Both the position numbers and the translations under genes were made by a program. A stretch of 64,000 bases of DNA from Parcubacteria group bacterium Gr01-1014_17 (lineage in GTDB: Bacteria > Patescibacteriota > Minisyncoccia > Phycocordibacterales > UBA10002): contig VMFZ01000005.1 of the NCBI GenBank assembly GCA_007376285.1, forward strand, positions 699-64,698, read 5' to 3'. Of the stretch, positions 31,691-64,000 are shown piece after piece. Under the pieces are notes generated by a model. It saw nothing but the letters and a program-made list of their open reading frames with translations. It made no database searches and had not been told where the DNA came from. How positions within the stretch are numbered: the first letter of the stretch is position 1; each line of letters begins with the position of its first letter.

Positions 31691-31693
31691 TAT

Positions 31694-33595: not shown

Positions 33596-33667
33596 TGTCT
33601 GTAGTGTACGATATTATCACTCAAACACAAGCCAATTATCCACATTGGCTTACTGTGTTATATTGTC

Positions 33668-37643: not shown

Positions 37644-37655
37644 AAGGAAAAATAA

Positions 37656-37997: not shown

Positions 37998-38015
37998 CTT
38001 CTTGTTGTGTTCTCG

Positions 38016-38048
38016 CAAGCCCCGTTCAAATGGACGGGGCTTTTCTGT
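38016..38048 (+). terminator. Rho-independent terminator (AGCCCCGT-loop-ACGGGGCT followed by TTTTCT)
   Basis: An 8 bp GC-rich stem with a T-tract, directly after the island's last ORF. Confidence 0.55.
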
Positions 38049-38063
38049 ACTATATGGTAATAT

Positions 38064-40762: not shown

Positions 40763-40772
40763 TCTTGCTCGT

Positions 40773-42566: not shown

Positions 42567-42568
42567 TT

Positions 42569-43201: not shown

Positions 43202-43213
43202 CTATCTTTAAAA

Positions 43214-45030: not shown

Positions 45031-45033
45031 TAT

Positions 45034-46389: not shown

Positions 46390-47588
46390 TTCATTCTCTT
46401 TTCAAGAGATTTCGGCTACATTTTTTCGCACTCGCCGCGCTCGCGCTTTTTCCGCTTCTCGCGATTCTTGCTCGCATTCGTGCGCGGGGACGCACCGGCA
46501 ACGCACCGCGTATATTGGTCGTACCAATACTGACGCGCGTCGGGGATTTGGTGTGTTCAACACCGGTGTTTCGGGAAATAAAGATGCACTTTCCAAACGC
46601 CCACCTTGCAGTGGTCGTCGGTCGGAAAGCAAAGGGAATTCTTGTGCACAATCCACGGATTGACGATCTGATTGATTACAATAATGAGCGTTTTCATGGA
46701 TTTGCTGGACGCTGGAGGTTTTTCTATTTTTTATATTCGCAAAAATTTGACGCGGTATTTTCATTGGGAACGAGCGTTATCGGTACGCTTTCCTGTATTT
46801 TCGCCGCCGCTCCGATTCGTGTGAAGACCGTGGTGGCGCACCCGCCGTTTTTTGAGCGATTGACCGATTGGATGAACACAGATCGGGTAACCTATACGCA
46901 CGGCACATTTCTCCAGAAACATTATGTGTCGCTTCTTTCCGCGCTGGGAGTTCGTTCTGCACAACCGATCAAAGAGGTATTCACGACCGAGGCGGGCGAG
47001 AGGAAAGCGCGCGCATTTTTTGATGGCGCGTTTGGAGGCGTTCCGCCGCTTTTGGTTGGTATGACTGTCTCTGCGGGCAACAAGATAAAAGAATGGCCAC
47101 TGGCGCGTTTCGCGGAGGTTGCGGATATACTGGTGGAGAAATATGGAGCAAGAATTATTTTCATAGACAGTCCGGCGAATCGCGAACGCACTGAAGAGGT
47201 GGTGGGTCTGATGAAACGGCGTGCTGCGGCGTGCGCAATAGATTTTTCTTTGGAAGAACTACCTTCGCTCATTAAACGATTACACGCTTTTGTGGCGGTA
47301 GACACGGGCGCTATTTATATTGCGCACGCGCTTGGCGTTCCATTGGTTGATATTATTGGACCCGTTGAGCCGAATGAACAGCCGCCCTCTGATGAAAAGA
47401 GTGTTCAGGTCCTTCCGGCGAGTGGAATCGAGCCCACCTCATTTGTTTTCTATTCGAATGAGTGTAACGGCAATTATATGCCGGCGGTTCTCTCTATTAC
47501 CGCGCCACAAGTCGTTGCGGCTTTTGAGTTGCTCATTGCGCGCGGATTTGTACGCAATGCGCAACCTTTTTATGAAAAGAATTCGTAA
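46386..47588 (+). CDS. Glycosyltransferase family 9 (heptosyltransferase-like), second copy
   Basis: RILVVPILTRVGDLVCSTPVFREIKMHFPNAHLAVVVG N-terminal GT9 signature and VDTGAIYIAHALGVP. Confidence 0.6.
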   Translation: MIHSLFKRFRLHFFALAALALFPLLAILARIRARGRTGNAPRILVVPILTRVGDLVCSTPVFREIKMHFPNAHLAVVVGRKAKGILVHNPRIDDLIDYNNERFHGFAGRWRFFYFLYSQKFDAVFSLGTSVIGTLSCIFAAAPIRVKTVVAHPPFFERLTDWMNTDRVTYTHGTFLQKHYVSLLSALGVRSAQPIKEVFTTEAGERKARAFFDGAFGGVPPLLVGMTVSAGNKIKEWPLARFAEVADILVEKYGARIIFIDSPANRERTEEVVGLMKRRAAACAIDFSLEELPSLIKRLHAFVAVDTGAIYIAHALGVPLVDIIGPVEPNEQPPSDEKSVQVLPASGIEPTSFVFYSNECNGNYMPAVLSITAPQVVAAFELLIARGFVRNAQPFYEKNS

Positions 47589-49353: not shown

Positions 49354-50705
49354 AAACTATTTTTATTTCAATTCTTTCCGGCGTTGAGGCGAAAGCGATT
49401 TTGCGAACCGATATTCTCGGGACGCTTCTGGCGCGTGGAAACATTCGCGTGGTGCTGTTTGTGAAGAACGCAGCACGCGCCGCATTTTATGAAAAAGAGT
49501 TTTTGCATCCTCGAGTTTGTTACGAAGTAATTGACGCATATGCATTTTCGCCCATAAACACATTGTTTGATTTTCTGAAAAATTTTTTAGTGCGCACTAA
49601 TACGCTCGCGCTCTATCGCCGACTTCTCCTCATTGACCGTAAAAATGTCTTCGTATTTGTCGGAGGTTTTCTGTTCAGTGCACTGTTAGCCAGGCCGCTC
49701 TTTCAGCGTATCGCTCGATTTCTGGACGCCAGTTTTGTGCGCGACCAGATTTTTTACTCGGTGTTTGAGCGCTACAGGCCGTCTCTCGTATTTCTCGCCA
49801 ATCTTTTTGATACGGTGGAAGTAAGTATGCTCCGCGAAGCAAAACGGCGCGGAATTCGCAGTGTAGGTTTTGTTAATTCATGGGACAAAATTGCATCAAA
49901 GGGTTTTTTGCGGCTTGTGTCTGATGTAGTGATTGCACCAAACCATATCGTTAAAGAAGAGGCCATATATTATGATAATGTGCCACGCGAAAAGATTTTT
50001 GTGTCAGGCGTTCCACAATACGATATGTATTGGAGTATAGAAAATATTCTGCCTCGCGAGGTGTTTTTCCAAAAAATGAAGATGGACCCGAAGAAGCGCC
50101 TTATTATATTTGGCCCTATAGGAAAAACACTCAGCAATTCCGATTGGGAGATGATTGACACCATGCATTCATTACTCCAAGTGCATATTCCAGAAACGCA
50201 GATGCTTGCCCGTTTTCAACCAAATGACTTTGCGGGTGATGAAGCAGAATTTCGGAAGCGTCCTTGGCTTCATGTAGATGTTCCTGGTGTGCGCTTTGGT
50301 ACGGGTATTGGGATGGACTGGGATATGACTGCCGCTGAACTCCTTCATTTGAAAAATACACTTTTCCATTGTGCGCTTCTTGTTTCTTATGCCTCCAGTA
50401 TTTCAATCGACGCGGCGGTTTTTGACAAGCCGATAATAAATATTGGATTTGAAATACGCCATGGCGACCCAGCATGGAAACAGCCGACGCGCCGATATGC
50501 AACCGTGCATTACCAAAAAGCGCTCGCAACTGGTGGGATTCGTTTGGTTAAAAGCGAAGAAGAATTGATTGAGTGGATTAAGAAATATCTGGCGCATCCG
50601 CAATTGGACCGTAAAGGCCGCGCGCGCCTCGTGCACGAACAGTGCGTGTATACCGATGGCAAAACAGGCAAGCGCATAGCAGATTTTCTCTTGCGGCAGT
50701 TATAA
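49350..50705 (+). CDS. TagF-like GT-B transferase, paralog 5 of 5
   Basis: NSWDKIASKG...VSGVPQYDMY...LIIFGPIGK...LLVSYASSISIDAAVFDKPIINIGFE...TDGKTGKRI blocks. Confidence 0.4.
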   Translation: MKTIFISILSGVEAKAILRTDILGTLLARGNIRVVLFVKNAARAAFYEKEFLHPRVCYEVIDAYAFSPINTLFDFLKNFLVRTNTLALYRRLLLIDRKNVFVFVGGFLFSALLARPLFQRIARFLDASFVRDQIFYSVFERYRPSLVFLANLFDTVEVSMLREAKRRGIRSVGFVNSWDKIASKGFLRLVSDVVIAPNHIVKEEAIYYDNVPREKIFVSGVPQYDMYWSIENILPREVFFQKMKMDPKKRLIIFGPIGKTLSNSDWEMIDTMHSLLQVHIPETQMLARFQPNDFAGDEAEFRKRPWLHVDVPGVRFGTGIGMDWDMTAAELLHLKNTLFHCALLVSYASSISIDAAVFDKPIINIGFEIRHGDPAWKQPTRRYATVHYQKALATGGIRLVKSEEELIEWIKKYLAHPQLDRKGRARLVHEQCVYTDGKTGKRIADFLLRQL

Positions 50706-50714
50706 TAGAGCGTT

Positions 50715-51932
50715 ATGAATGTCGTGCGTAAAAAAATATGCGTGGTGAACGGAAAGCGGGGCGGTTTTAACGCGCTTCTGCCGACGATGCGCGCGATTGA
50801 AGCGGAACCATCGCTTGAATTGCAGGTGCTTCTGACTGATATGCATCTTTCCGAACAATTCGGATATACCCTTGAGTACGCAAAACGCTACATCTCTATT
50901 GCACGTACCGTTCCCTTGAATCAAACAGGAGGCACGGCACGGGAGAGAGTTGAGGCGCTTGGCCGCGGACTTTCGGGACTAGCAGGCGCGTTTGACGACT
51001 TGAAGCCGGATATTGTGCTTCTTCTCGGCGATCGTTCCGAGACACTCGTTGCCGCATTTGCGGCTTTGCAATTGGGCATTCCAGTCGCGCACATTCAGGG
51101 AGGCGAAGTATCGGGCAATTTAGACGGAATCCAGCGGCACGCGATTACCAAGCTCGCGCATCTTCACTTCACCGAAACTGAACGCGCTCGTCGGACTGTT
51201 CTACATTTAGGCGAAGAACGATGGCGCGTTCAGCGCGTCGGCGCACCGTATTTAGATTTTATTTTCCAAAAATTATACACGCCGGAGCAAGAAGTCCGCG
51301 CGAAGTTTAATCTTCAAGAAAATGAGCCGTTTCTTTTAATTCTTCAGCATCCGGAAACCAGAATGCCTGAGCGTAGTCGGAGCGACATGGAAGAAATCTT
51401 ATCTGCGGTTGAAGCAACGAGCCTGCGCGCGGTGGTCGCGTATCCGTGTTCAGACCAGGGATATGAAGGCATTATTGAAGCAATTGAGACGCGGCGCGGC
51501 AACCCGCAGTTTTCCATCCACAAAAATATCCCAGCTGAGGACTTTATCGGGCTTCAGGCGTGCGCGTCTGTGCTTGTGGGTAATTCTTCGGCAGCGATTT
51601 ATGAAGCGCCGTATTTGTATTTGCCGTCGGTGTCGGTCGGGAGCCGCCAGCGCAAGCGCGAACGGGAAAATAATATCATAGATGTTTTGCCGGAACGCCG
51701 CTTGATTAAAAAAGCGATTGATACGGCGCGTTTTGATGTGATTTTTCGGAAAAAGTTACACAGCCTGCGCCGTATCTACGGAGACGGAAAAGCGCATAAA
51801 CGAATTGTAAACGCTTTGCGCAAAGCCCCTCCGCGCGCGCGACTGTTTAAGAAGTCCCTCACTCATTACAGCATAAAACGCCAACTATTTGACCGATATG
51901 TAAAGCCACTAACCGACCGCTTGCGCGCGTAA
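50715..51932 (+). CDS. UDP-N-acetylglucosamine 2-epimerase (WecB/NeuC family)
   Basis: ICVVNGKRGGFNAL...LLLGDRSETLVAAFAA...HIQGGEVSG...THLHF motifs. Confidence 0.8.
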   Translation: MNVVRKKICVVNGKRGGFNALLPTMRAIEAEPSLELQVLLTDMHLSEQFGYTLEYAKRYISIARTVPLNQTGGTARERVEALGRGLSGLAGAFDDLKPDIVLLLGDRSETLVAAFAALQLGIPVAHIQGGEVSGNLDGIQRHAITKLAHLHFTETERARRTVLHLGEERWRVQRVGAPYLDFIFQKLYTPEQEVRAKFNLQENEPFLLILQHPETRMPERSRSDMEEILSAVEATSLRAVVAYPCSDQGYEGIIEAIETRRGNPQFSIHKNIPAEDFIGLQACASVLVGNSSAAIYEAPYLYLPSVSVGSRQRKRERENNIIDVLPERRLIKKAIDTARFDVIFRKKLHSLRRIYGDGKAHKRIVNALRKAPPRARLFKKSLTHYSIKRQLFDRYVKPLTDRLRA

Positions 51933-52004
51933 CAAAAACCGAGTTATTTTCGTTCCAAGAAATGGATATGCACGGAGAAAATAGAAAAATCAGAAAGGTA
52001 AGAA

Positions 52005-53231
52005 ATGAAGATAGAAAAAGAAGAGAAACAATTGACGGTATTAGTATTGGGTGGCGACGGATATCTCGGGTGGCCTACCGCGATGCATTTTGCGGCGCGA
52101 GGCCATGCGGTTGCGATTGCGGATAACCTCCAAAAACGGCGGATGGAAGAAGAAGTTGGCGGCGAACCCTTGTTTCTCCGCCCGACGCTTCAGCGGCGGG
52201 TCAAGCTTTGGAATTCGCTCAATGCCGGACATTACATTGCATTGCCCCCGGGCAATGTCATTGATATTGCGCAAAATGGGCCTGCGCTCATTGACTTCAT
52301 ACTTCGGTTTGAGCCTGATGTCATCATCCATTACGCGGAGCAGCCATCGGCACCATACTCAATGTGGAGCCGTTCGCGGGCAGTCAATACGGTTGTAAAC
52401 AATAGCGCTGGAACGCTCAATGTGTTGTTTGCGATTCGCGAGCTAAAGCGTCAAAACGGCAAAGACGCGCATCTTATCAAGTTGGGAACAATGGGCGAGT
52501 ATGGGACGCCAAACATTGATATTGAAGAGGGGTGGTTGGAAGTTGAACACAATGGTCGCAAAGACCGTTTGCCGTTTCCGAAACTCCCCGGCAGTTTCTA
52601 TCACGCTAGCAAAGTTGCGGACTCTGCCTACATTGAGTTCGCGTGTCGCGCGTGGGGGATTCGGGCGACTGACCTCAATCAGGGAGTGGTGTACGGAATC
52701 GATACGGCCGAGACAACACTTCATACTGACTTGGTCACCAGCTTCCACTATGATGCCGTGTTTGGTACCGCACTCAATCGCTTCATTGCGCAGGCGGTCG
52801 TGGAAGTCCCGCTTACGGTGTACGGCAAGGGTGGGCAGACGCGCGGATATTTGAACATTCGCGATACACTCCAGTGTGTTGCCTTGGCGGCGCAGAGTCC
52901 GCCGAATGCCGGAGAGTTCCGTGTGTTTAACCAGTTCACCGAGCAGTTCTCTGTGCTGGATCTTGCGGAAAAGGTGAAACGAGTTGGCAACACGCTCGGT
53001 CTCATCGTGGTCATTGACCACATTCAAAATCCACGCGTGGAGAAAGAGGCGCACTATTACAACCCCAAGCACACCGGTCTTTTGTCGCTTGGGCTTCAGC
53101 CACATCTGCTCACCGACGAAGTGATCACCGAAATGATACAAAAAGTCATCACAGCGCAAAAGGCGATTGACCGCGATGTCATTGCGCCTCGCATCCTTTG
53201 GCGTCCAGTCGAGGAAGCGCCATCAATCTAA
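52005..53231 (+). CDS. sqdB: UDP-sulfoquinovose synthase (SqdB/SQD1/Agl3 family)
   Basis: VLVLGGDGYLGW, HYAEQPSAPYSM, IKLGTMGEYGTPNIDIEEGW and RATDLNQGVVYG are the hallmark blocks of the UDP-sulfoquinovose synthases. Confidence 0.8.
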   Translation: MKIEKEEKQLTVLVLGGDGYLGWPTAMHFAARGHAVAIADNLQKRRMEEEVGGEPLFLRPTLQRRVKLWNSLNAGHYIALPPGNVIDIAQNGPALIDFILRFEPDVIIHYAEQPSAPYSMWSRSRAVNTVVNNSAGTLNVLFAIRELKRQNGKDAHLIKLGTMGEYGTPNIDIEEGWLEVEHNGRKDRLPFPKLPGSFYHASKVADSAYIEFACRAWGIRATDLNQGVVYGIDTAETTLHTDLVTSFHYDAVFGTALNRFIAQAVVEVPLTVYGKGGQTRGYLNIRDTLQCVALAAQSPPNAGEFRVFNQFTEQFSVLDLAEKVKRVGNTLGLIVVIDHIQNPRVEKEAHYYNPKHTGLLSLGLQPHLLTDEVITEMIQKVITAQKAIDRDVIAPRILWRPVEEAPSI

Positions 53232-53235
53232 ACAT

Positions 53236-53272
53236 AGCACCCGATGTCTGCAAAACATCGGGTGTTTTTTAT
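53236..53272 (+). terminator. Rho-independent terminator (CACCCGATGT-CTGCAAA-ACATCGGGTG followed by TTTTTT)
   Basis: A 10 bp stem with a T6 tract after the sqdB stop. The stem is the same as in the in-frame palindromes at 103-135 and 3884-3922. Confidence 0.65.
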
Positions 53273-53288
53273 AAGTTATACTGTCTGT

Positions 53289-54191
53289 ATGCGTTTGCTT
53301 ATCACCGGCAGTTCCGGCTTTATTGGCTCGTATGTCGCAGAAGAAGCTCGTGCGCGCGGGCATGAGGTATTTCCTTTTGATATAAAAGGAAGTTCACGCA
53401 ATGATTTTCGTCATTTTAGCGCAATCAAAAATGCGTGCAAAAAAGCAAAACCAGAGGCCGTCGTCATACATCTCGGCGCGTTACCATCGGTACAGCAGTC
53501 AATTAAAGAGCCGGAAGTAACCTATGAGACGAATGTACGCGGCACATGGAATGTGCTGGAAGCCGCGCGCCTAGGAGGCGCGCGGCGGTTCGTATTTGCA
53601 TCTTCCGCCGCGGTATATGGCACGACCGGCGAAGAATATGACGGCAAGCCGCTATCGGAAGATTTACCGCTTCAACCGAAAAATCCGTATGGACTTGCGA
53701 AAAAAATCGGCGAGCAGATGGTGGAAATGTGGTCGCGCGACACATTATGGAAAAACATTGACGGCGTGTCTTTGCGGTTTTTCAATGTATTTGGTCCTCG
53801 CCAAAGGCGGGATAGCGCGTACGCTACTGCTATTGAAAAGTTTTTGTATCAAGTTGCGAAAAAAGAGCCGCTTACTGTTGTCTCTCCAGGCACTCAGCGC
53901 CGCGATATGGTATTTGTGAGGGATGTTGCGCGCGCCGTGCTTGCCGCCGCGGAAGCAAAGAAGCCGTTGTGCGGTGTCGCCATAAATATCGGGAGCGGCG
54001 CGAATTACTCCATTCAGGAGATTGCGGATATAATTGGCGGTAAAAAATATCCGCGTGTTATGCTCCCACCACGGCAAGGCGATGTACTCGAAGTCCTCGC
54101 GGACATCTCGCGCGCCAAGACACTCCTAAACTGGTCGCCCGAGGTCTCGTTTGAAGAAGGGATTAAAATTATAAAAAAATGCAAGCAATAA
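53289..54191 (+). CDS. NAD-dependent epimerase/dehydratase (UDP-hexose 4-epimerase-like)
   Basis: MRLLITGSSGFIGS and YGLAKKIGEQ. The track start at 53244 lies inside the terminator hairpin, so ATG 53289 is preferred. Confidence 0.7.
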   Translation: MRLLITGSSGFIGSYVAEEARARGHEVFPFDIKGSSRNDFRHFSAIKNACKKAKPEAVVIHLGALPSVQQSIKEPEVTYETNVRGTWNVLEAARLGGARRFVFASSAAVYGTTGEEYDGKPLSEDLPLQPKNPYGLAKKIGEQMVEMWSRDTLWKNIDGVSLRFFNVFGPRQRRDSAYATAIEKFLYQVAKKEPLTVVSPGTQRRDMVFVRDVARAVLAAAEAKKPLCGVAINIGSGANYSIQEIADIIGGKKYPRVMLPPRQGDVLEVLADISRAKTLLNWSPEVSFEEGIKIIKKCKQ

Positions 54192-54871
54192 TTTTAGCAG
54201 CGGGACGCGGCGAACGGCTTCGGCCGCTTACGGATTCCACGCCGAAGCCGCTTATTTTGGTTGAAGGGCAATCAATGATTGCCCATGCTCTTAACGCGTT
54301 ACCTGACGCAGTTACCGAGATTGTTATTGTTGTCGGTTATCTCGGAGAACTTATTGAAAAGATCATAGGATTTTCTTGGAAAGGAAAACCGGTTCGGTAT
54401 GTGCGGCAGGAGAATGGGCGAACTGGAACTTTTGCCGCGCTTTCTGCCGCAAAAAAGATTCTCAGCGAACGATTTTTAGTCCTCGCAAGCGATGTGTTTT
54501 ATAAAAAAGATGACTTAACCAATTTACTTAACCATACGCTCGCCCTTTTAGTTCGGAAAGAAGTTGGCGACGATTCGCGCCGTATCGCGCAATGCATCGT
54601 TGAAAACGAAATTCTTTGCGGTATTAACGAAGGGGAAACCCCGAAAGGAAAGGTGTTTGCGAACTCCTCGGCGTATGTGCTTGATAAACGAATCTTTGAC
54701 GAGCCGGTTGTGCGCGGAGAAAACGGAGAGGAGTGGCTCTCGGTGATGGTGGGAAATCTCGCATCCCGCGTTCCTATTCGCACAGTGGTCAGTACTTTTC
54801 ATGCTACTATCACAAATTCAGAGGACATTCCTCGTGTTGAAAATAAATTACGCGCGCATTTGACAAAATGA
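54179..54871 (+). CDS. Sugar-phosphate nucleotidyltransferase (NTP_transf_3 / MobA-like fold)
   Basis: MQAIILAAGRGERLRPLTDSTPKPLI glycine-rich loop. Confidence 0.55.
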   Translation: MQAIILAAGRGERLRPLTDSTPKPLILVEGQSMIAHALNALPDAVTEIVIVVGYLGELIEKIIGFSWKGKPVRYVRQENGRTGTFAALSAAKKILSERFLVLASDVFYKKDDLTNLLNHTLALLVRKEVGDDSRRIAQCIVENEILCGINEGETPKGKVFANSSAYVLDKRIFDEPVVRGENGEEWLSVMVGNLASRVPIRTVVSTFHATITNSEDIPRVENKLRAHLTK

Positions 54872-54921
54872 CATAACTCGTAATATCCTGCCTACAGGTT
54901 TCCAAAAGAAAAGGATAGTAA

Positions 54922-55506
54922 ATGAACATTGAAAGACGAGAATCAGTTTTGCGGATTGAACAGGACGAAGTCGTGTTTGAGGGTAGGTTTTCCACAACAA
55001 CACAACGACATTTCACGAATACACGGGACGGAAAACACGGTGTCTGGGAAGTTTTTTCGCGCAAAGGCGCAACTGGACGAGTTGTTGGTGTACTTGGAGT
55101 AACATCTGCGTTTGACGCAGTGTTGGTAAATATCTATCGCGTACCACTTCGTGCGTGGGTTGTTTCGTTAGTATACGGAGGGTGTATGTCGGGAGAATCC
55201 GAAACGCAAACGGCTCAGCGCGAGTTTCAAGAAGAAACTGGATATGTTATCAACGAACCTCGTTTGCTTTTTGCAGGCCCTTTTGCGCCCGGGGTAATGG
55301 CGGATGAGATGTCTGTTTTTGTCGGTTTTGGGGCTACGCCGAGCGGAGCGGCTAGTTGTGATGTTGCGGAAGACATAGACATTCTTGTTTTACCTCTCCG
55401 TGACGCAACAAAAGAACTCGCATCACTTTCGCTTTCAGGAAAAGCATTGGTTGATGTGAAAGTTTTTGGTGCGCTATATGCCACAAAAGAAATCTGCGGA
55501 TTGTAG
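54922..55506 (+). CDS. NUDIX hydrolase
   Basis: Nudix box GESETQTAQREFQEETG. Confidence 0.7.
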   Translation: MNIERRESVLRIEQDEVVFEGRFSTTTQRHFTNTRDGKHGVWEVFSRKGATGRVVGVLGVTSAFDAVLVNIYRVPLRAWVVSLVYGGCMSGESETQTAQREFQEETGYVINEPRLLFAGPFAPGVMADEMSVFVGFGATPSGAASCDVAEDIDILVLPLRDATKELASLSLSGKALVDVKVFGALYATKEICGL

Positions 55507-55581
55507 TTTTCGTAAAGGCGCTTCATTACGGGGCGCCTATTTTTTTGGAATATGTTGTCCTGTGTTAGTGTTATAGCAATT

Positions 55582-56295
55582 ATGCAGAAAAAAACATACA
55601 AAGTGCTCGCGACCGTCACGGCGCGCGGGGGGTCAAAAAGGATTCCCAAAAAAAGCATTGTGCCGCTTTTGGGAAAACCTTCAATAATTTATGTGATTGA
55701 AGCGCTTAAAAAAGCGAAGCGCATCACGCGCCTTATTGTAGATACGGATGATGCAGAGATTGCGGACATTGGGCGTAAAGCGGGCACGGAGATTCCCTTT
55801 ATGCGCCCCGCGTATTTGGCGACCGACACCACGCCACATATCGCCGTGCTCAAATACGAACTTGATTTTCTAAAAGAAAAAGAAGGATATGCGCCGGACG
55901 CGGTAGTTTTGGTTCAGCCAACGAGTCCACTGGTCAGTTCCGAAGAAATTGATAAATGCATTGAGCTTTTGTTTAAGGAAAATTTAGATTCAGTTGAATC
56001 GGTTTTTGAAGTGCCAACCCATTTTCACCCGTTTGCACAACGCGTCATTGATACGGAAAGGTACACACATTTTCTTTTTCAAAAAGAACGCACAGAATCA
56101 AAGCGGACGGGGATTAAGCCGACAACTTATGCAATGGGGAATGTGTATTGTTTTCGACCTTCAAATTTGAAGGAATACGGGACGATTCAAGGGGAAAAAA
56201 GCAAGTCAGTGATTATAGAGCGGCGGACCGCCGTGGATATTGATGAGCTGTTTGATGTGGAAATTGCAGAGACAGTACTTAAAAATCTGGCATAA
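55582..56295 (+). CDS. Acylneuraminate cytidylyltransferase family (CMP-nonulosonic acid synthetase, NeuA/LegF/PseF-like)
   Basis: LATVTARGGSKRIPKKSI N-terminal motif. The track start at 55552 is extended; ATG 55582 is preferred. Confidence 0.75.
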   Translation: MQKKTYKVLATVTARGGSKRIPKKSIVPLLGKPSIIYVIEALKKAKRITRLIVDTDDAEIADIGRKAGTEIPFMRPAYLATDTTPHIAVLKYELDFLKEKEGYAPDAVVLVQPTSPLVSSEEIDKCIELLFKENLDSVESVFEVPTHFHPFAQRVIDTERYTHFLFQKERTESKRTGIKPTTYAMGNVYCFRPSNLKEYGTIQGEKSKSVIIERRTAVDIDELFDVEIAETVLKNLA

Positions 56296-56347
56296 AAAAA
56301 TCTTCCTCATCCGCGTTGGGACAAGGAAGATTGTGAGTAACCAGATA

Positions 56348-58330
56348 CTAAACCGTTTCAACAGTTCTGAGCATTTTGGTGACATTCTGTTTGCTGAGAA
56401 CCCGTGATACCCCGATCGGGTCGTTTCCGTAAAGACGCAGTAGGTCGTTGATCTGCGCTTTTTGGCTTTCGGTATGGAAGAATCGCACCCATATTCCTTC
56501 CTGTATAGCATTACCGCAGTTCGAGAAGTCAAAATGAAAGAAACCCTCCCGTACCGTGTCTGTGTCAAGGAACTCATGTTTTTTCATAATGGAAAAGATT
56601 TCCAGTTCATGAAGGTATAAAAGTTCGTCGTTTACTATCGTTCGCGCGCAAAAGAACGCATATTGCATGATCTCATCCACCGCATCCATAAATGCCATGG
56701 CTTTGAAGCGGTATATCATATTACTCCCATGCTTTCCATTAGCATATTCCGCAATTGCAGCAGTATTCTTTGCCGATTTTTGGAGCGCATCTTCTGACAG
56801 AAACAACTCCTCGATTGTTTCTTTTCGGAAACTATTGAAGATATCTTTCAACTTCGGCGGAAAGTTTTCCCTCCAACCATTGAAGAGGTTCAGAATGAAG
56901 TCCGATGTCTTTACTCCACGCTCATTAAGGAACGAAAAAAGTTCTACCAAAATGCTGTCGTTGTAGAACACTTCTATGGCGAGATGGAAGAGCCGCATTT
57001 CCAAATACTCCTCAAACGAGAGGTCTTTTGTAGAAGTACATATTTCTTCAATTTCCACGCTCACGATAGGTTCTTCATTGCCGAACGGATACACGCCGAA
57101 ACATTGCGACATCACCCGGTATCCTGTTTTCATATCAAACTTCTCCCGTGTTTCCGCCGCGCTCATCTCCACTCCCATAAGCATCATGAGCGGATAATTG
57201 CGGATGAACTGAAATCCCGCGTCCAAAAGGATTCGATTGGTCTCAATATGAGACATGACCGAATCCCCCGGCATCGCGAGAATTGACTCCGAGTATACAT
57301 TACTTCCCAGCTCACGGGCTTTTTGCGCAAGCTCCATAAGTTGGTCAGCTTTGATATTATTCCGTTTTATGTTTTTGAGCACTTCTTCGGAGAGCGATTG
57401 CACTGCGCCAGAAAGCCGAAGCGCCCCATGCACATTTTTTGCAACGCGTAGCACCCGCTCTTTCTGGTTTTTACCGGTGGCGACATGAATGTATTCCGGC
57501 CAGCCGAACTCGTTCTGGATGCGCGCAATTGCATCACCGATTTTCTCATCTTCCGGGTACATCCCGAAGTTTGAATCCACGATGTGCAAATCATGGACCG
57601 TCTTGTGTTTACGCTCCGCAATATAGCGCAGTTCTCGTTCAATTGTTTCGGTTCCGCGCCGATTGACTTTGTTGTAATACAGGAGTCCTTCTACGCAGAA
57701 GGTGCAAGTAAACGGACAGCCGCGATTGCACTGAATCATCGGTACGATGTGTGGTTCAAAAAACTCGTCTAATACTCCCGTCAAATATGGCGAGGGTATT
57801 TCGTCAAGGTTTTTTACCCGTTCCGCCGGCGGAACGATGACCGCTTTCCCTTCTCGGATAAAGTGGCAACCGGGCAACGCGATATTTTTTGCCACTTCAG
57901 CATCCCATCCGTTTTCGGTCAGCGCTTCCAAAAGCGCGGTAAAGCCGACCTCCCCCTCTTTGTAGACATAAAAATCTACGAGAGGATATTTTCGGAGAAA
58001 CTGTTCTTGCTCTGCGGGGTTGGTAGGATAATTCGGTCCGCCGAACACGATGATGGTTTGGGGATTTTTTTGCTTAATCCGTTGCGCAAAACTATACGAC
58101 AGGTCAATGTTCCACATATAGTTGCTGAACGCAACCATAGGCGGAATGTCTTGTAACAGAGCGTCAATCAGTTTGTTCGGATATTTGAAAATCCGAAAAT
58201 TAAACCTATCCTCACCTTTCAGGTGGGATGCGGCGTAGGTAACGAGGCACGCGACTGGGTAGGGCATGCAGTTTAAGGCGATGGTCTTGTAAGTATGTGT
58301 TAAATCACATACGAATATTTGTGTATTCAT
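56348..58330 (-). CDS. B12-binding-domain radical SAM protein (class B radical SAM, candidate methyltransferase), ~661 aa
   Basis: N-terminal B12-binding-like region (IIVFGGPNYP), then the radical SAM CxxxCxxC CNRGCPFTCTFC, and a ~250 aa C-terminal extension. The track ORF extends to 59032 with a low-complexity 234 aa N-terminus overlapping the divergent neuB gene. That extension is judged not to be real, and the start is placed at MNTQIF. Confidence 0.65.
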   Translation of the reverse strand: MNTQIFVCDLTHTYKTIALNCMPYPVACLVTYAASHLKGEDRFNFRIFKYPNKLIDALLQDIPPMVAFSNYMWNIDLSYSFAQRIKQKNPQTIIVFGGPNYPTNPAEQEQFLRKYPLVDFYVYKEGEVGFTALLEALTENGWDAEVAKNIALPGCHFIREGKAVIVPPAERVKNLDEIPSPYLTGVLDEFFEPHIVPMIQCNRGCPFTCTFCVEGLLYYNKVNRRGTETIERELRYIAERKHKTVHDLHIVDSNFGMYPEDEKIGDAIARIQNEFGWPEYIHVATGKNQKERVLRVAKNVHGALRLSGAVQSLSEEVLKNIKRNNIKADQLMELAQKARELGSNVYSESILAMPGDSVMSHIETNRILLDAGFQFIRNYPLMMLMGVEMSAAETREKFDMKTGYRVMSQCFGVYPFGNEEPIVSVEIEEICTSTKDLSFEEYLEMRLFHLAIEVFYNDSILVELFSFLNERGVKTSDFILNLFNGWRENFPPKLKDIFNSFRKETIEELFLSEDALQKSAKNTAAIAEYANGKHGSNMIYRFKAMAFMDAVDEIMQYAFFCARTIVNDELLYLHELEIFSIMKKHEFLDTDTVREGFFHFDFSNCGNAIQEGIWVRFFHTESQKAQINDLLRLYGNDPIGVSRVLSKQNVTKMLRTVETV

Positions 58331-58429
58331 GCGGTTGGTCTTTCTGTTTGAGGTTTTTTGTAAAGGTTCTTTTCCGGTAGTATTCTCACATAACTTTTCT
58401 TGTTTCGCAAGTGTTCTATAATTCACCAT
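58331..58429. promoter_or_regulatory. Divergent promoter region between the class B radical SAM gene (-) and the NeuB-family gene (+)
   Basis: ~100 bp AT-rich spacer between divergent ATGs. No motif verified. Confidence 0.3.
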
Positions 58430-59443
58430 ATGAATAAGAATTCTGTATTTATAATTTGCGAGGCAGGCGTAACAAATTACGGCGATTTTAACATCGCAAA
58501 AAAGCAAATTGATGCCGCGGTTGCCGCACAGGCGGATGCGGTAAAGTTTCAACTCTGGCGCACCGAAGATTTGGTGTCCAAAAAAGTCGCCAAGAAATAC
58601 CAGAAAGAATTGGGTTACGACTGGTTCGCGCGGCTCAAATATAAAGAGCTTGCGCCTCGAGAAATAAAAGCATTGCAGGCATATGCAAAAGAGAAACATA
58701 TTTTGTTTTTTGCGACGGCACATGATGTGGCAAGTTTGGAATATTTGGACAAAGAATTGCATGTGCCGTTTTTCAAAGTCGGTTCCGGTGAAGCTGGAAA
58801 TATTGATTTTCTCAAAAATGTCGGTAAGCGCAGAAAACCTGTTTTTATTTCCTTTGGTTTTCACACGGATGCGGAAGCGCGCAAAGCGATGCGCGTACTG
58901 AAAAAGTCCGGCGCGCCGAGAGTTATTCCGCTCCATTGCGTTACGGTGTATCCGACTCCGTTTAACCAAGTTAATCTTCTTCGTATTGGTTGGTTTCGCC
59001 GCGCGTTCGGCATTGCTGGTTTTTCCGACCATAGCGTCGGCCGCGCTGCGTGCCTCGCGGCGGTTGCGCGCGGCGCGTCAGTGATTGAAAAACATTTGAC
59101 TTTTGACAAAAAGGACCCGCGTTCGCTGGACAATCCAGGCGCGCTTTTGCCGGATGAATTTGTCGCGCTGGTGCGCGAGGTTCGAGACATTGAAAGTGCA
59201 TTGCGTGTTCCTTCTTCTGTCGCCCTTCAAAAAGCGCGCGCAAAAGCGCGCGCGTGGGCCGAGCAGGCGATTGTTGCGGCGCGAGACATTGCGGCTGGAG
59301 AAAAAGTCACTCGCGCGATGCTTGCGTTCAAACGGCCTGCGAAAGGCGGTGTTTCGTCAAACGAAATTGGCACCGTACTAGGAAAAAACGCAAGAGTTGC
59401 GATACCTGCAGATGAACAGGTACTTCTGAAAGATCTATCATAA
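58430..59443 (+). CDS. neuB: N-acylneuraminate (nonulosonic acid) synthase, NeuB family with C-terminal SAF domain
   Basis: FIICEAGVTNYGD...AVKFQ...FKVGSGE NeuB motifs and a C-terminal SAF/antifreeze-like domain. Substrate specificity (Neu5Ac, Leg, Pse or Kdn) cannot be read from the sequence. Confidence 0.7.
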   Translation: MNKNSVFIICEAGVTNYGDFNIAKKQIDAAVAAQADAVKFQLWRTEDLVSKKVAKKYQKELGYDWFARLKYKELAPREIKALQAYAKEKHILFFATAHDVASLEYLDKELHVPFFKVGSGEAGNIDFLKNVGKRRKPVFISFGFHTDAEARKAMRVLKKSGAPRVIPLHCVTVYPTPFNQVNLLRIGWFRRAFGIAGFSDHSVGRAACLAAVARGASVIEKHLTFDKKDPRSLDNPGALLPDEFVALVREVRDIESALRVPSSVALQKARAKARAWAEQAIVAARDIAAGEKVTRAMLAFKRPAKGGVSSNEIGTVLGKNARVAIPADEQVLLKDLS

Positions 59444-59486
59444 CATTTGACTTTTTGACGGCGTTGCAGTAAAAGTAACTTCTCTT

Positions 59487-61025
59487 ATGCACACGCCGGA
59501 CACTTCCAAATTTAATTTTGACGGGCTTTTTACTCTTGAGATGGCGAACAACCATCAAGGGTCTTTAGAGCATGGCAAGCGCATTATCCGCGAAGCGGCA
59601 GCGGCGGTCAAAGAATCTGGTGTTCGCGCCGCGGTAAAACTCCAACTCCGCGACCTTGACTCATTCATTCACCCTGCATTCCGCGAGCGAAAAGATGTAA
59701 AACATATTCCGCGTTTTCTTTCCGCCCGCCTCGGGCGGGATGAGTTCCGCGAACTCGTAGAAGAAACGCGCCGGCATGGGCTCTATACTATGGCGACCCC
59801 GTTTGACGAGCCATCTGTGGATTTTCTAAATTCGCTCGGTGTGGAGATTGTAAAAGTCGCGAGTTGCAGCGCGCAGGATTGGCCGCTTTTGGAAAAGATT
59901 GCTGGGGCAGGGAAGCCGGTCATTGTGTCTGTCGGCGGGCTGTCGGTAAAAGAGGTGGATAAAGTGGTTTCGTTTTTTGAGCATCGCGGCGTGCACTTTG
60001 CATTGATGCATTGCGTGGCGCTCTACCCAACACCTTCGGACAAATTCTCGCTTGGCTATCTTGACGCAATGAAGAGCCGTTACCCGCATTTGACTATCGG
60101 GTTTTCAACGCATGAAGCGCCGTCCGACACTTCTACTATTGGGCTTGCGTACGCAAAGGGCGCACGAATTTTTGAGAAACACATAGGCGTGCCGACCGAT
60201 ACGATTACGCTCAATGCGTACTCCGCAAATCCGCAGGAACTGCGTTTGTGGTTCGCGGCGTATCAGAATGCAGCCACTGCGTGCGGCGGAAGCGGGCGTC
60301 CTGTTACAGAAGCAGAGCGCGCTGATTTACAGTCGTTGAAGCGTTGCGTGTTTGCGAAAGTGCCTATTCGTGCAGGAGAGAAGATTTCGCGCGAGCATGT
60401 GTTTTTTGCTATGCCGCTTGTTTTACCCGAACATTTAACGAGCGGCGAGTTTCGCGTCGGTGCTGTTGCCGACCGCGACTATGCGGAAGGTGAGGCGCTT
60501 TCTGGCAAACTCGCACCGCGCGGTTTTTCAAAACAGGAAACCATTTCCGAAGCTGTGCGCGAAGCAAAGGGAATGCTTAATTTTGCGAAGATTCCACTCT
60601 CGCACGATTTTACCGTTGAAGTGTCACATCATTACGGCTTGGAGCGGTTTAAGGAAGTCGGTTGCATTATTATTGATTGCATAAACCGCGAATATGCGCG
60701 CAAGCTTGTGGTGCAATTTCCGGGACAGTACCATCCGGTGCATTACCACAAAGTGAAAGATGAAAGCTTTCATGTGCTCTCAGGTACTGTGGAGATGGAC
60801 GTGGAAGGGAAGAAGAAGGTGCTTATGCCCGGCGACACTTTGTGGATGCCGCGCGGCGTGTGGCACGGATTTCGCACTGATACAGGCGTCGTGTTTGAAG
60901 AGATATCAACAACTTCACTGGAAACGCAGGGCGATTCGTACTACATAGATAAGAGCATTTCCGCTATGCCGCGCGAAGCGCGCAAAACCAAGCTCTTGAA
61001 CTGGGGGCGGCATCAGTTTGACTAA
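59487..61025 (+). CDS. Second NeuB-family synthase with an extra C-terminal cupin domain (512 aa)
   Basis: FTLEMANNHQGSLEHG...VKLQ...VKVASCS NeuB core and a SAF domain. A ~100 aa C-terminal cupin follows (QYHPVHYHKVKDESFHVLSGTVEM...WMPRGVWHGF). Confidence 0.6.
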   Translation: MHTPDTSKFNFDGLFTLEMANNHQGSLEHGKRIIREAAAAVKESGVRAAVKLQLRDLDSFIHPAFRERKDVKHIPRFLSARLGRDEFRELVEETRRHGLYTMATPFDEPSVDFLNSLGVEIVKVASCSAQDWPLLEKIAGAGKPVIVSVGGLSVKEVDKVVSFFEHRGVHFALMHCVALYPTPSDKFSLGYLDAMKSRYPHLTIGFSTHEAPSDTSTIGLAYAKGARIFEKHIGVPTDTITLNAYSANPQELRLWFAAYQNAATACGGSGRPVTEAERADLQSLKRCVFAKVPIRAGEKISREHVFFAMPLVLPEHLTSGEFRVGAVADRDYAEGEALSGKLAPRGFSKQETISEAVREAKGMLNFAKIPLSHDFTVEVSHHYGLERFKEVGCIIIDCINREYARKLVVQFPGQYHPVHYHKVKDESFHVLSGTVEMDVEGKKKVLMPGDTLWMPRGVWHGFRTDTGVVFEEISTTSLETQGDSYYIDKSISAMPREARKTKLLNWGRHQFD

Positions 61026-61063
61026 AGAAAGGAATGGTGCTAGTATTCTGTTTGGAAAAATGA

Positions 61064-61150
61064 AACATCCCCCCAACCCCCCTTGAAAGGGGGAGCCTCA
61101 GAAAATCCTCCCTTGAGGGAGGTGTCTCCCGTAGGGAGACGGAGGATGTT
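61064..61150 (+). repeat. 87 bp structured repeat element, copy 1 (terminal inverted repeats AACATCC/GGATGTT, three internal hairpins)
   Basis: AACATCCCCCCAACCCCCCTTGAAAGGGGGAGCCTCAGAAAATCCTCCCTTGAGGGAGGTGTCTCCCGTAGGGAGACGGAGGATGTT. Hairpins: CCCCCC/GGGGG, CCTCCC-TTGA-GGGAGG and GTCTCCC-GTA-GGGAGAC. Confidence 0.6.
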
Positions 61151-61174
61151 GTCTTAAAAACAAAAGGAAAACAA

Positions 61175-61831
61175 ATGCACAAAAAATTAGTAGTGGTCTT
61201 TGATTTTGACGGCGTACTCACGGTTGGCGGCGAAGGGTTGAAGCAAAAAGCGTGGGACATTCTTGCGTTGCCGCTTCATCAAGAAAATGCAAATTTGCTC
61301 TATAAAAAGCGAGAGGAATTCTCTGGCGGCAAGGGCTCTCGGAACGATATTCTCCGTGAGACATTCGCAGAGTTCTATCCCCCATACAATGTGGGTCTTC
61401 TCACCGCCGGTTACGCCGACTGTTACAACACAATTGTGCATAAACTGTTGGAGCAATCCGGAATGCCAGAGGGGACGGAACAGACGCTTGCGACTCTCGC
61501 GAAGTTTTGCACTCTGTTTGTGAATTCTGCGACGCCGGAAAAAGCGGTACGGGAATCGGTGCAGAACTTCAACATTGTGCAACACTTCCGCGGCATCTTC
61601 GGCCAGCCGATTTCCAAAGTGGACAATCTTGCTCGTGCCCAGCATCTGACACAAGTTGACAGAGAGTTTATACTCTTTGTAGGCGACAGCGATGGAGATG
61701 CCAAAGCCGCAAAAGAGTTTGGGTGCGATTTCGTGGGGGTCGCAAATGATTGGAACAAGTGGACAAAGGAGACCGTCAAGTTTCCGCTTGTTGGTTCCAT
61801 AGCCGAACTTCCGAAATTGCTGGAAACATAA
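61175..61831 (+). CDS. HAD-superfamily hydrolase (candidate sugar-phosphate phosphatase, e.g. nonulosonate-9-P phosphatase)
   Basis: VVVFDFDGVLT motif I and FVGDSDGD motif IV. Flanked on both sides by the 87 bp element. Confidence 0.6.
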   Translation: MHKKLVVVFDFDGVLTVGGEGLKQKAWDILALPLHQENANLLYKKREEFSGGKGSRNDILRETFAEFYPPYNVGLLTAGYADCYNTIVHKLLEQSGMPEGTEQTLATLAKFCTLFVNSATPEKAVRESVQNFNIVQHFRGIFGQPISKVDNLARAQHLTQVDREFILFVGDSDGDAKAAKEFGCDFVGVANDWNKWTKETVKFPLVGSIAELPKLLET

Positions 61832-61918
61832 AACATCCCCCCAACCCCCCTTCAAAGGGGGAGCTTCTGAAAATCCTCCCTTGAGGGAGGTGTCTCCCGT
61901 AGGGAGACGGAGGATGTT
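61832..61918 (+). repeat. 87 bp structured repeat element, copy 2 (3 substitutions relative to copy 1, all in a hairpin loop or the first linker)
   Basis: Same sequence as copy 1 except TTCAAA for TTGAAA and GCTTCTG for GCCTCAG. Begins directly after the HAD stop codon. Confidence 0.6.
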
Positions 61919-61920
61919 CA

Positions 61921-61960
61921 TAACACCCGATGAAAATCGGGTGTTTTCTTTTGTTTCTTT
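61921..61960 (+). terminator. Rho-independent terminator (ACACCCGAT-GAAA-ATCGGGTGT followed by a T-rich tract)
   Basis: Hairpin with a T-tract immediately after repeat copy 2. Same CACCCGAT stem family as the other palindromes. Confidence 0.6.
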
Positions 61961-61989
61961 TTTCCTCCCTCTGTGGTTATATAATTCGT

Positions 61990-62712
61990 ATGAAGATTTA
62001 CGCCATTATTCCTGCGCGGGGCGGCTCAAAAGGCGTGCCTGGGAAAAATGTGAAGGACTTATGCGGCAAGCCGCTTATTGCGTGGACAATTGAAGCCGCG
62101 AAAAAAGTTCCGGAGATTTCTCGTGTCATTGTGAATACCGATGACGTAGATATTGCGGAGGCGGCAAAAAAGTATGGCGCGGAAGTCTTTCACCGACCGA
62201 AGAAATTGGCGCAAGACCTCACACTGGATTTGCCGGTTTTTGAACATCATTTGCGCGCGCTTGAAGCGGATGGGGACTTGCCAGACATAGTTGTTGACAT
62301 TCGCGCGACTGCGCCGCTTCGGCGCAGTGCGCGAATTGCGGAGGGGATTGCTCTTCTGAAACGGCTCGGGCGCGCCCGCGCGGACTCTGTTCGCGCGGTG
62401 TCAAAAGCAAGCAAGCATCCGTACAAAATGTGGCGGTTTCAAGGAGAACACATTGAGCCGTTTTTACCGGAAGCGCATACGGGAATGAAAGAGCCATACA
62501 ACGCGCCGCGCCAGATTTTGCCGGATGTGTTTCAAAACAATGGTTGTGTTAACATATTTTGGCCCGAGACGATTTTGGAGAAAAAATCAATGACTGGAGA
62601 AAAAATTGCCGGGTTTGTGATGGATGAGTGGGAGTCGGTGAATATCGACCACCCGATTGATTTTTTTGTAGCGGAACATTTAATGCGCGCACATCGCGAA
62701 AAATTCTTATGA
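61990..62712 (+). CDS. Second acylneuraminate cytidylyltransferase-family protein (CMP-sugar synthetase)
   Basis: MKIYAIIPARGGSKGVPGKN N-terminal signature. The track start at 61930 lies in the terminator, so ATG 61990 is preferred. Confidence 0.7.
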   Translation: MKIYAIIPARGGSKGVPGKNVKDLCGKPLIAWTIEAAKKVPEISRVIVNTDDVDIAEAAKKYGAEVFHRPKKLAQDLTLDLPVFEHHLRALEADGDLPDIVVDIRATAPLRRSARIAEGIALLKRLGRARADSVRAVSKASKHPYKMWRFQGEHIEPFLPEAHTGMKEPYNAPRQILPDVFQNNGCVNIFWPETILEKKSMTGEKIAGFVMDEWESVNIDHPIDFFVAEHLMRAHREKFL

Positions 62713-63779
62713 AAGTGAAAATCATAGGAGCGGGGTCAATAGGGAATCACTTGACGCAGGCGTGCCGGCGGATGGGGTGGAGCGTGTGCATTGTAGATGC
62801 AGACCCAAAGGCGCTTCTGCGGATGAAGAATGAGATTTATCCGACTCGCTACGGAGCGTGGGACAGTGCGATTAAACAATATACGCTAGATGAGGCGCCG
62901 AGCGGCGGTTTTGACATTATTATGGTCGGGACGCCGCCGCATGTTCGGATGGCGGTGGCGCTTGAAATGCTTGCAGAAAAGCCGAAAATACTTCAGTTGG
63001 AAAAGCCATTATGCGCGCCGTTTGATAAAAATCTGCGGAAGTTTGTTACGGCGTATAAAAAACAAAAAACTACAAAAGTAATCGTCGGATATGACCATTC
63101 GGTTGCGAAGGCAATGCATCGTGTCGCTGAATTGATTGCAAGCGGCATTACCGGAGAGGTGAAAACAATTGATGTTGAGTTTCGGGAACATTGGGAAGGA
63201 ATCTTCAAGGCGCACCCATGGCTCAAGGGTCCGCAGGATACCTATTTGGGATATTGGAAAAAGGGCGGCGGGGCAAGCGGAGAGAACTCTCACGCGCTTC
63301 ATTTGTGGCAGTATCTGGCGCGTATTTCCGGGTTTGGCGTATGGAAGAAAATGTCGGCGGCGATGAAAATGGAAAAAGATGGAAAAGTAGAATACGATTC
63401 TCTCTCTGCGTTTTTGTTTGAAACAGATACGGGAAAAGTCGGGCGCGTGATTCAAGATGTCGTCACAAAGCCGACGCGCAAGTGGGCGCGGCTTCAGGGT
63501 GTAGATGGTTTTATTGAGTGGATATGCAACGGCGTTCCTGGCGGCGACCTTGTGAGATATGCCGGCGCGGATGGCGTGGTGAAAGAAGAGATATTTGAAA
63601 AGAAACGACCAGATGACTTTTATCAAGAGACGCTCCATATCGCGGGTTTACTGTCCGGCAAAATCCACTTTGCAGATTCACCTCTTTCATTTGAAAGCGC
63701 GCTATCGGTGATGTCGGTTTTGGAGACCGCGTGGAGAAACAACAAAACGCAACTTGCGTATATCCGCAAGGTATGTTAG
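62709..63779 (+). CDS. Gfo/Idh/MocA-like NAD(P)-binding oxidoreductase
   Basis: MKVKIIGAGSIGNHL Rossmann N-terminus and an EKP motif region. Confidence 0.5.
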   Translation: MKVKIIGAGSIGNHLTQACRRMGWSVCIVDADPKALLRMKNEIYPTRYGAWDSAIKQYTLDEAPSGGFDIIMVGTPPHVRMAVALEMLAEKPKILQLEKPLCAPFDKNLRKFVTAYKKQKTTKVIVGYDHSVAKAMHRVAELIASGITGEVKTIDVEFREHWEGIFKAHPWLKGPQDTYLGYWKKGGGASGENSHALHLWQYLARISGFGVWKKMSAAMKMEKDGKVEYDSLSAFLFETDTGKVGRVIQDVVTKPTRKWARLQGVDGFIEWICNGVPGGDLVRYAGADGVVKEEIFEKKRPDDFYQETLHIAGLLSGKIHFADSPLSFESALSVMSVLETAWRNNKTQLAYIRKVC

Positions 63780-63829
63780 TATATTTTCGGAGTTCTAGAA
63801 GGTCTTTCACAATCAAATAGGAGGTCTGA

Positions 63830-64000
63830 ATGCATAAATGGATGAAGTGGACGGTGCTTGAAGCGGCGTCCAAAACGGTAGTGCGTTTGTTGCAGAAAGT
63901 TCTAGGAGACGCAACGACAACACTCGGCGGTGTCAGCGCGGTTATCTTCTTAACCGGTTTTGTACAGCTCGTGATGGGTCTTTTCGGTCTATTGTCCAAG
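63830..64000 (+). CDS. Hypothetical protein, 5' portion only (runs off the window end); possibly membrane-associated
   Basis: AGGAGG RBS 7 bp upstream of the ATG. Hydrophobic stretch VSAVIFLTGFVQLVMGLFGLL. Confidence 0.3.
   Translation, partial: MHKWMKWTVLEAASKTVVRLLQKVLGDATTTLGGVSAVIFLTGFVQLVMGLFGLLSK

Follow-up and report, generated by a model that had tools for sequence, protein, structure and literature searches.

A putative TokK/CysS-type class B radical S-adenosylmethionine methyltransferase encoded among nonulosonic-acid genes of a Parcubacteria group bacterium

Introduction

The closest described relatives of the gene considered here are class B radical S-adenosylmethionine (SAM) enzymes of antibiotic pathways. 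TokK and ThnK from Streptomyces methylate the C6 alkyl chain of carbapenems (structures 7kdx and 7kdy), and CysS is the iterative methylase of the cystobactamid pathway (9n1b-d), acting, according to the titles of its structures, on a pantetheinylated methoxy-aminobenzoate. In TokK, Trp76 lies 3.8 Å under the cobalt of base-off cobalamin, and among the characterised methylases only ThnK and CysS share this Trp; a third domain makes up much of the TokK substrate channel. TokK, CysS and the KedN5 family of methylcobalamin-dependent radical SAM C-methyltransferases are iterative methylases of non-sugar substrates. Other class B enzymes include GenK and GenD1 of the gentamicin pathway, which C-methylate aminoglycoside sugars, and Fom3 of the fosfomycin pathway, which methylates a substrate linked to cytidine monophosphate (CMP). 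In this study, we describe a cobalamin-dependent radical SAM gene at positions 56348..58330 (minus strand) of a 64,000-nucleotide stretch of DNA, hereafter the window, from Parcubacteria group bacterium Gr01-1014_17 (contig VMFZ01000005.1). Its sequence and predicted fold point, with reasonable though not high confidence, to a class B radical SAM methyltransferase of the TokK/ThnK/CysS plan that probably acts on an intermediate of the nonulosonic-acid pathway encoded beside it.

Domain plan and predicted fold

The features of the gene (all on the minus strand; aa, amino acids) are as follows.

56348..58330, minus strand: cobalamin-dependent radical SAM gene, 660 aa plus stop, start MNTQIF
57932..58174, minus strand: Pfam B12-binding domain PF02310, aa 53-133, within the N-terminal Rossmann domain
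58112..58114, minus strand: codon for W73, equivalent to TokK Trp76 by sequence alignment
57260..57730, minus strand: radical SAM core PF04055, aa 201-357
57695..57718, minus strand: CPFTCTFC, the predicted [4Fe-4S] ligands, spaced C205-x3-C209-x2-C212
56351..57133, minus strand: C-terminal domain, about aa 400-660, equivalent by fold match to the third, substrate-binding domain of TokK and CysS

A Pfam profile search, which the original prediction had called for, found both of the domains that it had named. PF02310 scored 35.1 bits (gathering cut-off, 32.1) and PF04055 scored 52.1 bits (cut-off, 29.5), the expected CxxxCxxC motif being present as CPFTCTFC. With motif and core both in place, the protein belongs to the radical SAM superfamily, and the cobalamin-binding Rossmann domain that precedes the core in sequence and model gives it the class B domain plan.

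Among solved structures, TokK (E 4.7e-47) and CysS (E 5.4e-34) are closest in sequence. An AlphaFold2 model built from 27 family members (mean predicted local distance difference test score 90.4; predicted template modelling score 0.88) gave the same ranking. In a Foldseek search it matched TokK 7kdx with a template modelling (TM) score of 0.77 and CysS 9n1b-d with TM scores of 0.71-0.75, in each case over all three domains and about 650-720 aligned columns, while OxsB (0.49), TsrM (0.47) and MgmA followed far behind. The model also aligns with the cobalamin domains of TokK, CysS, OxsB and TsrM. The long C-terminal part noticed earlier is indeed present, but "extension" is not the right term for it: because the fold match runs over the full length, it corresponds to the third domain of TokK and CysS, so that the predicted structure has the complete three-domain architecture of TokK, ThnK and CysS.

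Among the NCBIfam profiles, the best match was the KedN5 family (NF033712), with 189 bits against a cut-off of 700 (aa 21-588, E 1e-55), which makes the protein a relative of that family, not a member. The equivalogs for HpnR, HpnJ, BchE, PhpK, BzaD, the TsrM type and other class B enzymes gave 20-60 bits against cut-offs of 250-750. Homologues number more than 1,500, every one of them generically named. The protein is thus related to TokK, CysS and KedN5 but belongs to no named family. The class B assignment made from the sequence earlier stands; its mention of a GenK or Fom3 type can be refined, the nearest characterised relatives in the sets searched being TokK and CysS by sequence and fold and KedN5 by profile. 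GenK, GenD1, Fom3 and HpnP were not among the matches in NCBIfam or in the PDB sequences, sets that hold no profiles or sequences for them. For Fom3 there is a functional analogy, as a CMP-nonulosonic acid would likewise be a CMP-linked substrate.

The resemblance to TokK and CysS includes residues of likely functional importance. The CxxxCxxC motif occupies the same position as in TokK, and W76 of TokK, the Trp that TokK and CysS have in common, aligns with W73. In an alignment of 86 family sequences, C205, C209 and C212 are invariant and W73 is kept in 97-100%. Many Lys and Arg residues are invariant as well, among them K49, K287, R203, R323, R405, R446 and R655, and these are compatible with an anionic substrate. 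There are also differences: identity is just 22-24% with TokK and about 19% with CysS, whose genomic context is unrelated, and TokK, which belongs to an antibiotic cluster, has a pantetheinylated carbapenam as its substrate, whereas the gene in the window lies in a surface-glycan and nonulosonic-acid locus.

Class B chemistry on a sugar need not be methylation; rearrangement, oxidation or the formation or cleavage of C-C bonds, as with OxsB, BchE and HpnJ, would be conceivable. Such enzymes exist, and OxsB is among the fold matches; weak NCBIfam matches to HpnJ and BchE and the replacement of the active-site Trp215 of TokK by Glu point in the same direction. However, sequence and fold are far closer to TokK and CysS (TM 0.77 and 0.75) than to OxsB (0.49), the top profile is that of a C-methyltransferase family, and the Trp under the cobalt of the TokK/ThnK/CysS methylases is kept almost throughout the family. 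We therefore regard non-methylating chemistry as improbable.

Genomic context in the window and in other genomes

The radical SAM gene is the sole minus-strand gene in a long plus-strand run of glycan genes, and this inverted orientation is retained in several relatives. The genes of the window that bear on its function are as follows.

58430..59443, plus strand: NeuB-family nonulosonic acid synthase with SAF domain, divergent from the radical SAM gene
55552..56295, plus strand: CMP-sugar synthetase (CTP_transf_3, PseF/NeuA-like), the convergent neighbour
52005..53231, plus strand: SQD1-like short-chain dehydrogenase/reductase (SDR), 408 aa, with Pro at the position of Arg101 of SQD1 and Agl3
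50715..51932, plus strand: NeuC-type hydrolysing UDP-GlcNAc 2-epimerase
43214..44215, plus strand: D-2-hydroxyacid dehydrogenase, phosphoglycerate dehydrogenase (PGDH)-like, often in the same operon in other genomes

The NeuB protein scored 208.8 bits with the Pfam NeuB profile, which it passes, 270 bits with TIGR03569 (cut-off 399.65) and 188 with PseI (cut-off 340), and the epimerase scored 336 bits with TIGR03568 (cut-off 235.9). The whole window (1..64000) is devoted to glycan biosynthesis, with GT1, GT2, GT4 and GT9 glycosyltransferases, GtrA, SDRs, methyltransferases and an ABC exporter.

This neighbourhood recurs elsewhere. A relative that is 80% identical has the same arrangement of NeuB, radical SAM and CMP-transferase genes as the window, and homologues of 42-52% identity from unrelated lineages adjoin NeuB, a NeuC-type epimerase, a CMP-transferase, a D-2-hydroxyacid dehydrogenase and an SDR of about 400 aa; one example of the operon order is NeuB-NeuC-HacidDH-rSAM-CTP-SDR (HacidDH, D-2-hydroxyacid dehydrogenase; rSAM, radical SAM; CTP, CMP-transferase). 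Neighbouring genes at 85 loci were scored by tblastn in the 10 kb on either side of the gene, the contigs often being truncated, with the following counts.

CMP-transferase: 28/85 loci
NeuB: 26/85 loci
NeuC: 19/85 loci
SDR of about 400 aa, SQD1-like: 18/85 loci
D-2-hydroxyacid dehydrogenase: 9/85 loci

In a rough neighbour-joining tree, the loci linked to nonulosonic acids are concentrated in two clades. The link is thus specific to some clades, that of the window included. Outside both clades, the genes nearby again include nucleotide-sugar genes, for example those for a TylC3-like C-methyltransferase, an HldE-like kinase/nucleotidyltransferase, an RmlD-like reductase, a carbamoyltransferase and a GT28 protein. 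Because of this nucleotide-sugar context and of the conserved residues shared with the members outside the two clades, the whole family looks like one of sugar-tailoring enzymes. The earlier suggestion that the enzyme C-methylates or otherwise radically modifies a sugar of the nonulosonic-acid pathway gains support in two ways: from the synteny across phyla, on which the pathway assignment proposed here depends, and from the sugar-nucleotide setting of the distant members.

The operon also exists without the radical SAM gene. NeuB-NeuC-HacidDH-CTP-SQD1-like operons at loci L090 and L098 lack it within flanks of at least 6 kb, which rules out an obligate role in the SQD1-like/NeuBCA operon and, as the same operon occurs without the gene, suggests an optional tailoring step.

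Some side observations concern the loci of other family members. An orthologue is carried by a cultured organism, Thalassospira lucentensis DSM 14000 (L024). At L003:12379-14402, SHMT and FolD genes come after the gene for a PGDH-like dehydrogenase, which hints at a local supply of serine and one-carbon units beside the methylase. Some loci with the cassette (L004:1270-2784, L010) carry a second B12-binding radical SAM gene of about 504 aa or a second copy of the family; the second gene of L004 adjoins a Maf/MptE-like flagellin glycosyltransferase and genes for acetamidino formation (PP-loop amidotransferase, HisF/HisH-like).

The SQD1-like partner

The most characteristic partner of the radical SAM gene, which the original prediction did not name, is the SQD1-like gene, found in 11 of the 13 members of the window's clade. 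Its product matches the UDP-sulfoquinovose synthase SQD1 of Arabidopsis (PDB 1i24) over aa 11-402 (E 1.5e-134). It carries GTMGEYG and SFYHASK, and so has the [ST]MG...Yx3K signature, together with His183, and it scores 423 bits with NCBIfam NF041015, under the cut-off of 575. All 19 of the SQD1-like proteins linked to a radical SAM gene have EQPSAP instead of the EQRSAP of SQD1 and Agl3, that is, Pro in place of Arg101. The R101A mutant of Agl3 is inactive.

A scan from the SQD1 side covered 80 metagenome loci. None of the 27 loci of the R type (EQRSAP) had a radical SAM, NeuB, NeuC or CMP-transferase gene; the P-type proteins that read HYAEQP are the ones linked to NeuB-NeuC-HacidDH-CTP operons. 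Among the P-type loci with adequate flanks, the radical SAM gene was present in L086, L095 and L092 and not in L090 and L098. We considered whether the Arg101-to-Pro change is unique to the radical SAM cassette, which was refuted: the P type makes up 30 of 40 diverse SQD1-like representatives, many of them outside nonulosonic-acid loci. As far as we found in the literature searched, the P type is an uncharacterised branch. The enzyme may introduce a sulfonate, a 5,6-ene or some other change at hexose C6, the position that would become C9 in the nonulosonic acid.

The tunicamycin pathway offers an analogy in logic only. TunA is an SDR-type 5,6-dehydratase that yields an exo-glycal, and the radical SAM enzyme TunB then builds a higher-carbon sugar; the window likewise holds an SDR and a radical SAM gene. 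The SDR, however, belongs to the SQD1 family and not to that of TunA, and a coupling of the two activities in the window would be hypothetical.

This association raises the alternative that the enzyme is a class B methylase acting on something other than a nonulosonic acid: either the compound that the SQD1-like enzyme makes (a UDP-hexose or UDP-HexNAc altered at C6, or a 5,6-ene or 4-keto-5,6-ene intermediate) or another sugar from the surface glycan. The nonulosonic-acid genes would then merely be neighbours in one large glycan locus, and the entire 64-kb window is indeed such a locus. At many loci the SQD1-like gene adjoins the radical SAM gene or lies within one gene of it, besides its high frequency in the window's clade; SQD1 and Agl3 release the 5,6-ene when sulfite is absent, and the Arg that is essential in Agl3 is lost in every linked protein. 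Furthermore, members outside the nonulosonic-acid loci sit among other nucleotide-sugar genes and retain nearly all of the conserved residues. On the other hand, loci L018, L031, L059 and L085 have NeuB, NeuC and a CMP-transferase without an SQD1-like gene, and CMP-transferase and NeuB are the commonest partners overall. We consider this alternative unlikely, although it deserves more weight than the non-methylating chemistry discussed above.

Proposed reaction and points against it

If the enzyme is, as seems likely, a methyltransferase of the nonulosonic-acid pathway, its reaction would probably run as follows. The cluster held by C205, C209 and C212 would cleave SAM reductively to give a 5'-deoxyadenosyl radical, which would abstract hydrogen at an unactivated sp3 substrate carbon. 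The substrate radical would then gain a methyl group from base-off methylcobalamin, bound in the N-terminal Rossmann domain above W73, and a second SAM would remethylate the cob(I)alamin. Repeated action on one position is possible, after the example of TokK and CysS. The substrate would be the CMP-activated acid, the free acid or a hexosamine precursor, and the product a C-methylated, possibly chain-extended, sialic-acid-like sugar for a cell-surface glycan, made as an optional tailoring.

Several observations weigh against this proposal. The B12-binding domain scores just 3 bits over its Pfam cut-off, and the curated cut-off is reached for no NCBIfam family, the KedN5 profile included. Not all class B enzymes methylate, OxsB and BchE being examples of those that do not. 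Parcubacteria are not known to make cobalamin, so that the cofactor would have to be scavenged, and in the 64-kb window neither a tRNA nor any Rfam family was found, hence no cobalamin riboswitch. W215 and R280, which contact the substrate in TokK, are replaced by E214 and H282; as these contacts are not conserved, the substrate must differ and cannot be read from homology. Finally, a single alignment position tells the members linked to nonulosonic acids from those that are not, nearly all conserved residues being kept in both, so that the family may act on sugars or sugar nucleotides more generally and not specifically on a nonulosonic acid.

Start codon and gene borders

The six-frame open reading frame (ORF) that holds the gene extends from 59032 to 56348 on the minus strand and would encode 894 aa. 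Trimming to the MNTQIF Met at 58330 leaves 660 residues plus the stop, in agreement with the protein of about 661 aa put forward before. The features at the borders of the gene are as follows.

58331..59032, minus strand: the 234 codons of the six-frame ORF above MNTQIF, spurious and antisense to neuB
58331..58429, no strand assigned: divergent intergenic region of 99 bp, from the radical SAM ATG to the neuB ATG
56299..56332, minus strand: terminator-like hairpin, a 14-bp stem followed by a T-run, just past the radical SAM stop codon

Homologues of 72-86% identity are 661-662 aa long and begin with MKTPIFVCDLTH. In L001 and L002 (80% identical) and in L006 (72%), a stop codon closes the frame 17 or 12 codons 5' of the equivalent ATG, with no alternative start codon upstream of that ATG in these three loci. 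Because of these homologue starts and of the frame being closed in the relatives, MNTQIF is the conserved and correct start. The 234-codon extension gave no Pfam match, and a scan of the 894-aa form only shifted both domains by 234 residues. The view that this extension is spurious is thus borne out, except that its description as low-complexity was loose, the sequence being the antisense translation of neuB. The 894-aa ORF owes its length to the chance that this antisense frame of neuB is free of stops.

A longer gene also has a deposited model in its favour. The GenBank protein (P0001; 100% identical, "cobalamin B12-binding domain-containing protein", Parcubacteria group bacterium) has 693 aa and begins at 58429, 33 codons above MNTQIF, and 249 codons upstream remain open. 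However, the extension has neither a domain nor homology, the closest homologues begin at the equivalent Met, and the stops found 12-17 codons upstream in L001, L002 and L006 leave no room for an alternative start. The 894-aa form would moreover cover about 600 nt of neuB on the opposite strand, and the 693-aa form would leave zero spacer, its start at 58429 and the neuB ATG at 58430 standing back to back within one CATATG. That either longer frame is the true gene is extremely improbable, and the deposited model is probably 33 codons too long.

With these borders, the gene is divergent from a NeuB-family neighbour, as had been proposed, across the 99-bp spacer. A block of this spacer, TTATAGAACACTTGC..., is common to the window and L001, and a simple sigma-70 promoter scan of the 99 bp gave nothing above chance. 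The TTG start listed for neuB at 58400 is probably 10 codons early, since MNKNSVFII (ATG 58430) fits the length of the relatives. At the other end, the gap that separates the radical SAM gene from the convergent CMP-transferase gene holds the hairpin; since a T-run follows it on the minus but not on the plus strand, it looks like a terminator for radical SAM transcription.

Other features of the window

Beyond neuB lies a second ulosonic-acid module (59487..63779, plus strand), which is conserved in L001 and L086 and may represent a Kdn-like, phosphate-dependent route. Its genes are as follows.

Within 59487..63779, plus strand: NeuB-SAF-cupin fusion, 512 aa, with weak matches to sugar-isomerase-like cupins
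61175..61831, plus strand: HAD phosphatase
61930..62712, plus strand: second CMP-transferase
62709..63779, plus strand: GFO/IDH/MocA oxidoreductase

Several other genes of the window have counterparts near radical SAM homologues. A second, SAM-only sugar C-methylase of the region is the TylC3-type NDP-hexose C-methyltransferase at 19307..20560 (plus strand; Methyltransf_13/14), and in Chlorobium ferrooxidans a gene of this family (L078:8548-9882) immediately precedes the radical SAM homologue. A NodU/CmcH-type carbamoyltransferase of 597 aa is encoded at 40773..42566 (plus strand), and its family occurs two genes downstream of the radical SAM homologue of Nisaea nitritireducens (L036:12559-14352), a locus in which a second, B12-less radical SAM gene adjoins. 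Four paralogues of about 450 aa (38064..39428, 39425..40762, 45034..46389 and 49350..50705, all plus strand) have weak matches to Glyphos_transf and to BFO_1060-family glycosyltransferases; they are candidate nonulosonic-acid transferases, and their family recurs at 8 of 18 cassette loci. The GC content of the window is even at 0.43-0.53, save for a dip to 0.35 at 36001..37000.

Higher-carbon ulosonic acids and significance

In the literature searched, no paper combined "radical SAM" and "nonulosonic acid", and no connection of sulfoquinovose or of nonulosonic, sialic, legionaminic or pseudaminic acids with radical SAM or cobalamin enzymes came to light; two genomic surveys of nonulosonic-acid clusters mentioned neither radical SAM proteins nor sulfoquinovose synthase. 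The gene thus encodes a new, uncharacterised enzyme of a known class, in a setting that this literature does not describe.

Ulosonic acids with an elongated, probably 10-carbon backbone have been detected by mass spectrometry in Magnetospirillum gryphiswaldense and, less abundantly, in Methanococcus, with no gene assigned to them (PMC8157484; bioRxiv 10.64898/2026.04.20.719630), and CMP-activated species in CH2 steps have been described (bioRxiv 10.64898/2026.04.20.719630). A potentially iterative C-methylase resembling TokK and CysS and located in nonulosonic-acid clusters is, by analogy, a candidate for such C10 chemistry. It is possible, though doubtful, that: the subfamily C-methylates a CMP-activated, sialic-acid-like backbone, perhaps iteratively; an SQD1-like enzyme with the Arg101-to-Pro change often modifies the future C9 in the same pathway; and the products are ulosonic acids of C10 and above. 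A homologue search seeded with an alphaproteobacterial member gave no Magnetospirillum among its matches, which carry generic names only.

These results have implications at several levels. For annotation, the deposited gene model probably begins 33 codons too early, and an uncharacterised Arg101-to-Pro branch of SQD1-like proteins, embedded in nonulosonic-acid operons, can be flagged. If the C10 proposal were true, the pathway would be widespread, from Patescibacteria to Proteobacteria, and a definite gene could be proposed for the 10-carbon ulosonic acids of bacteria and archaea, which have so far had no explanation. If a nonulosonic acid is methylated, cobalamin-dependent radical SAM chemistry would reach sialic-acid-like sugars, a new substrate class. 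The gene also implies that a Parcubacteria bacterium with a reduced genome needs B12 for the tailoring of its surface glycans.

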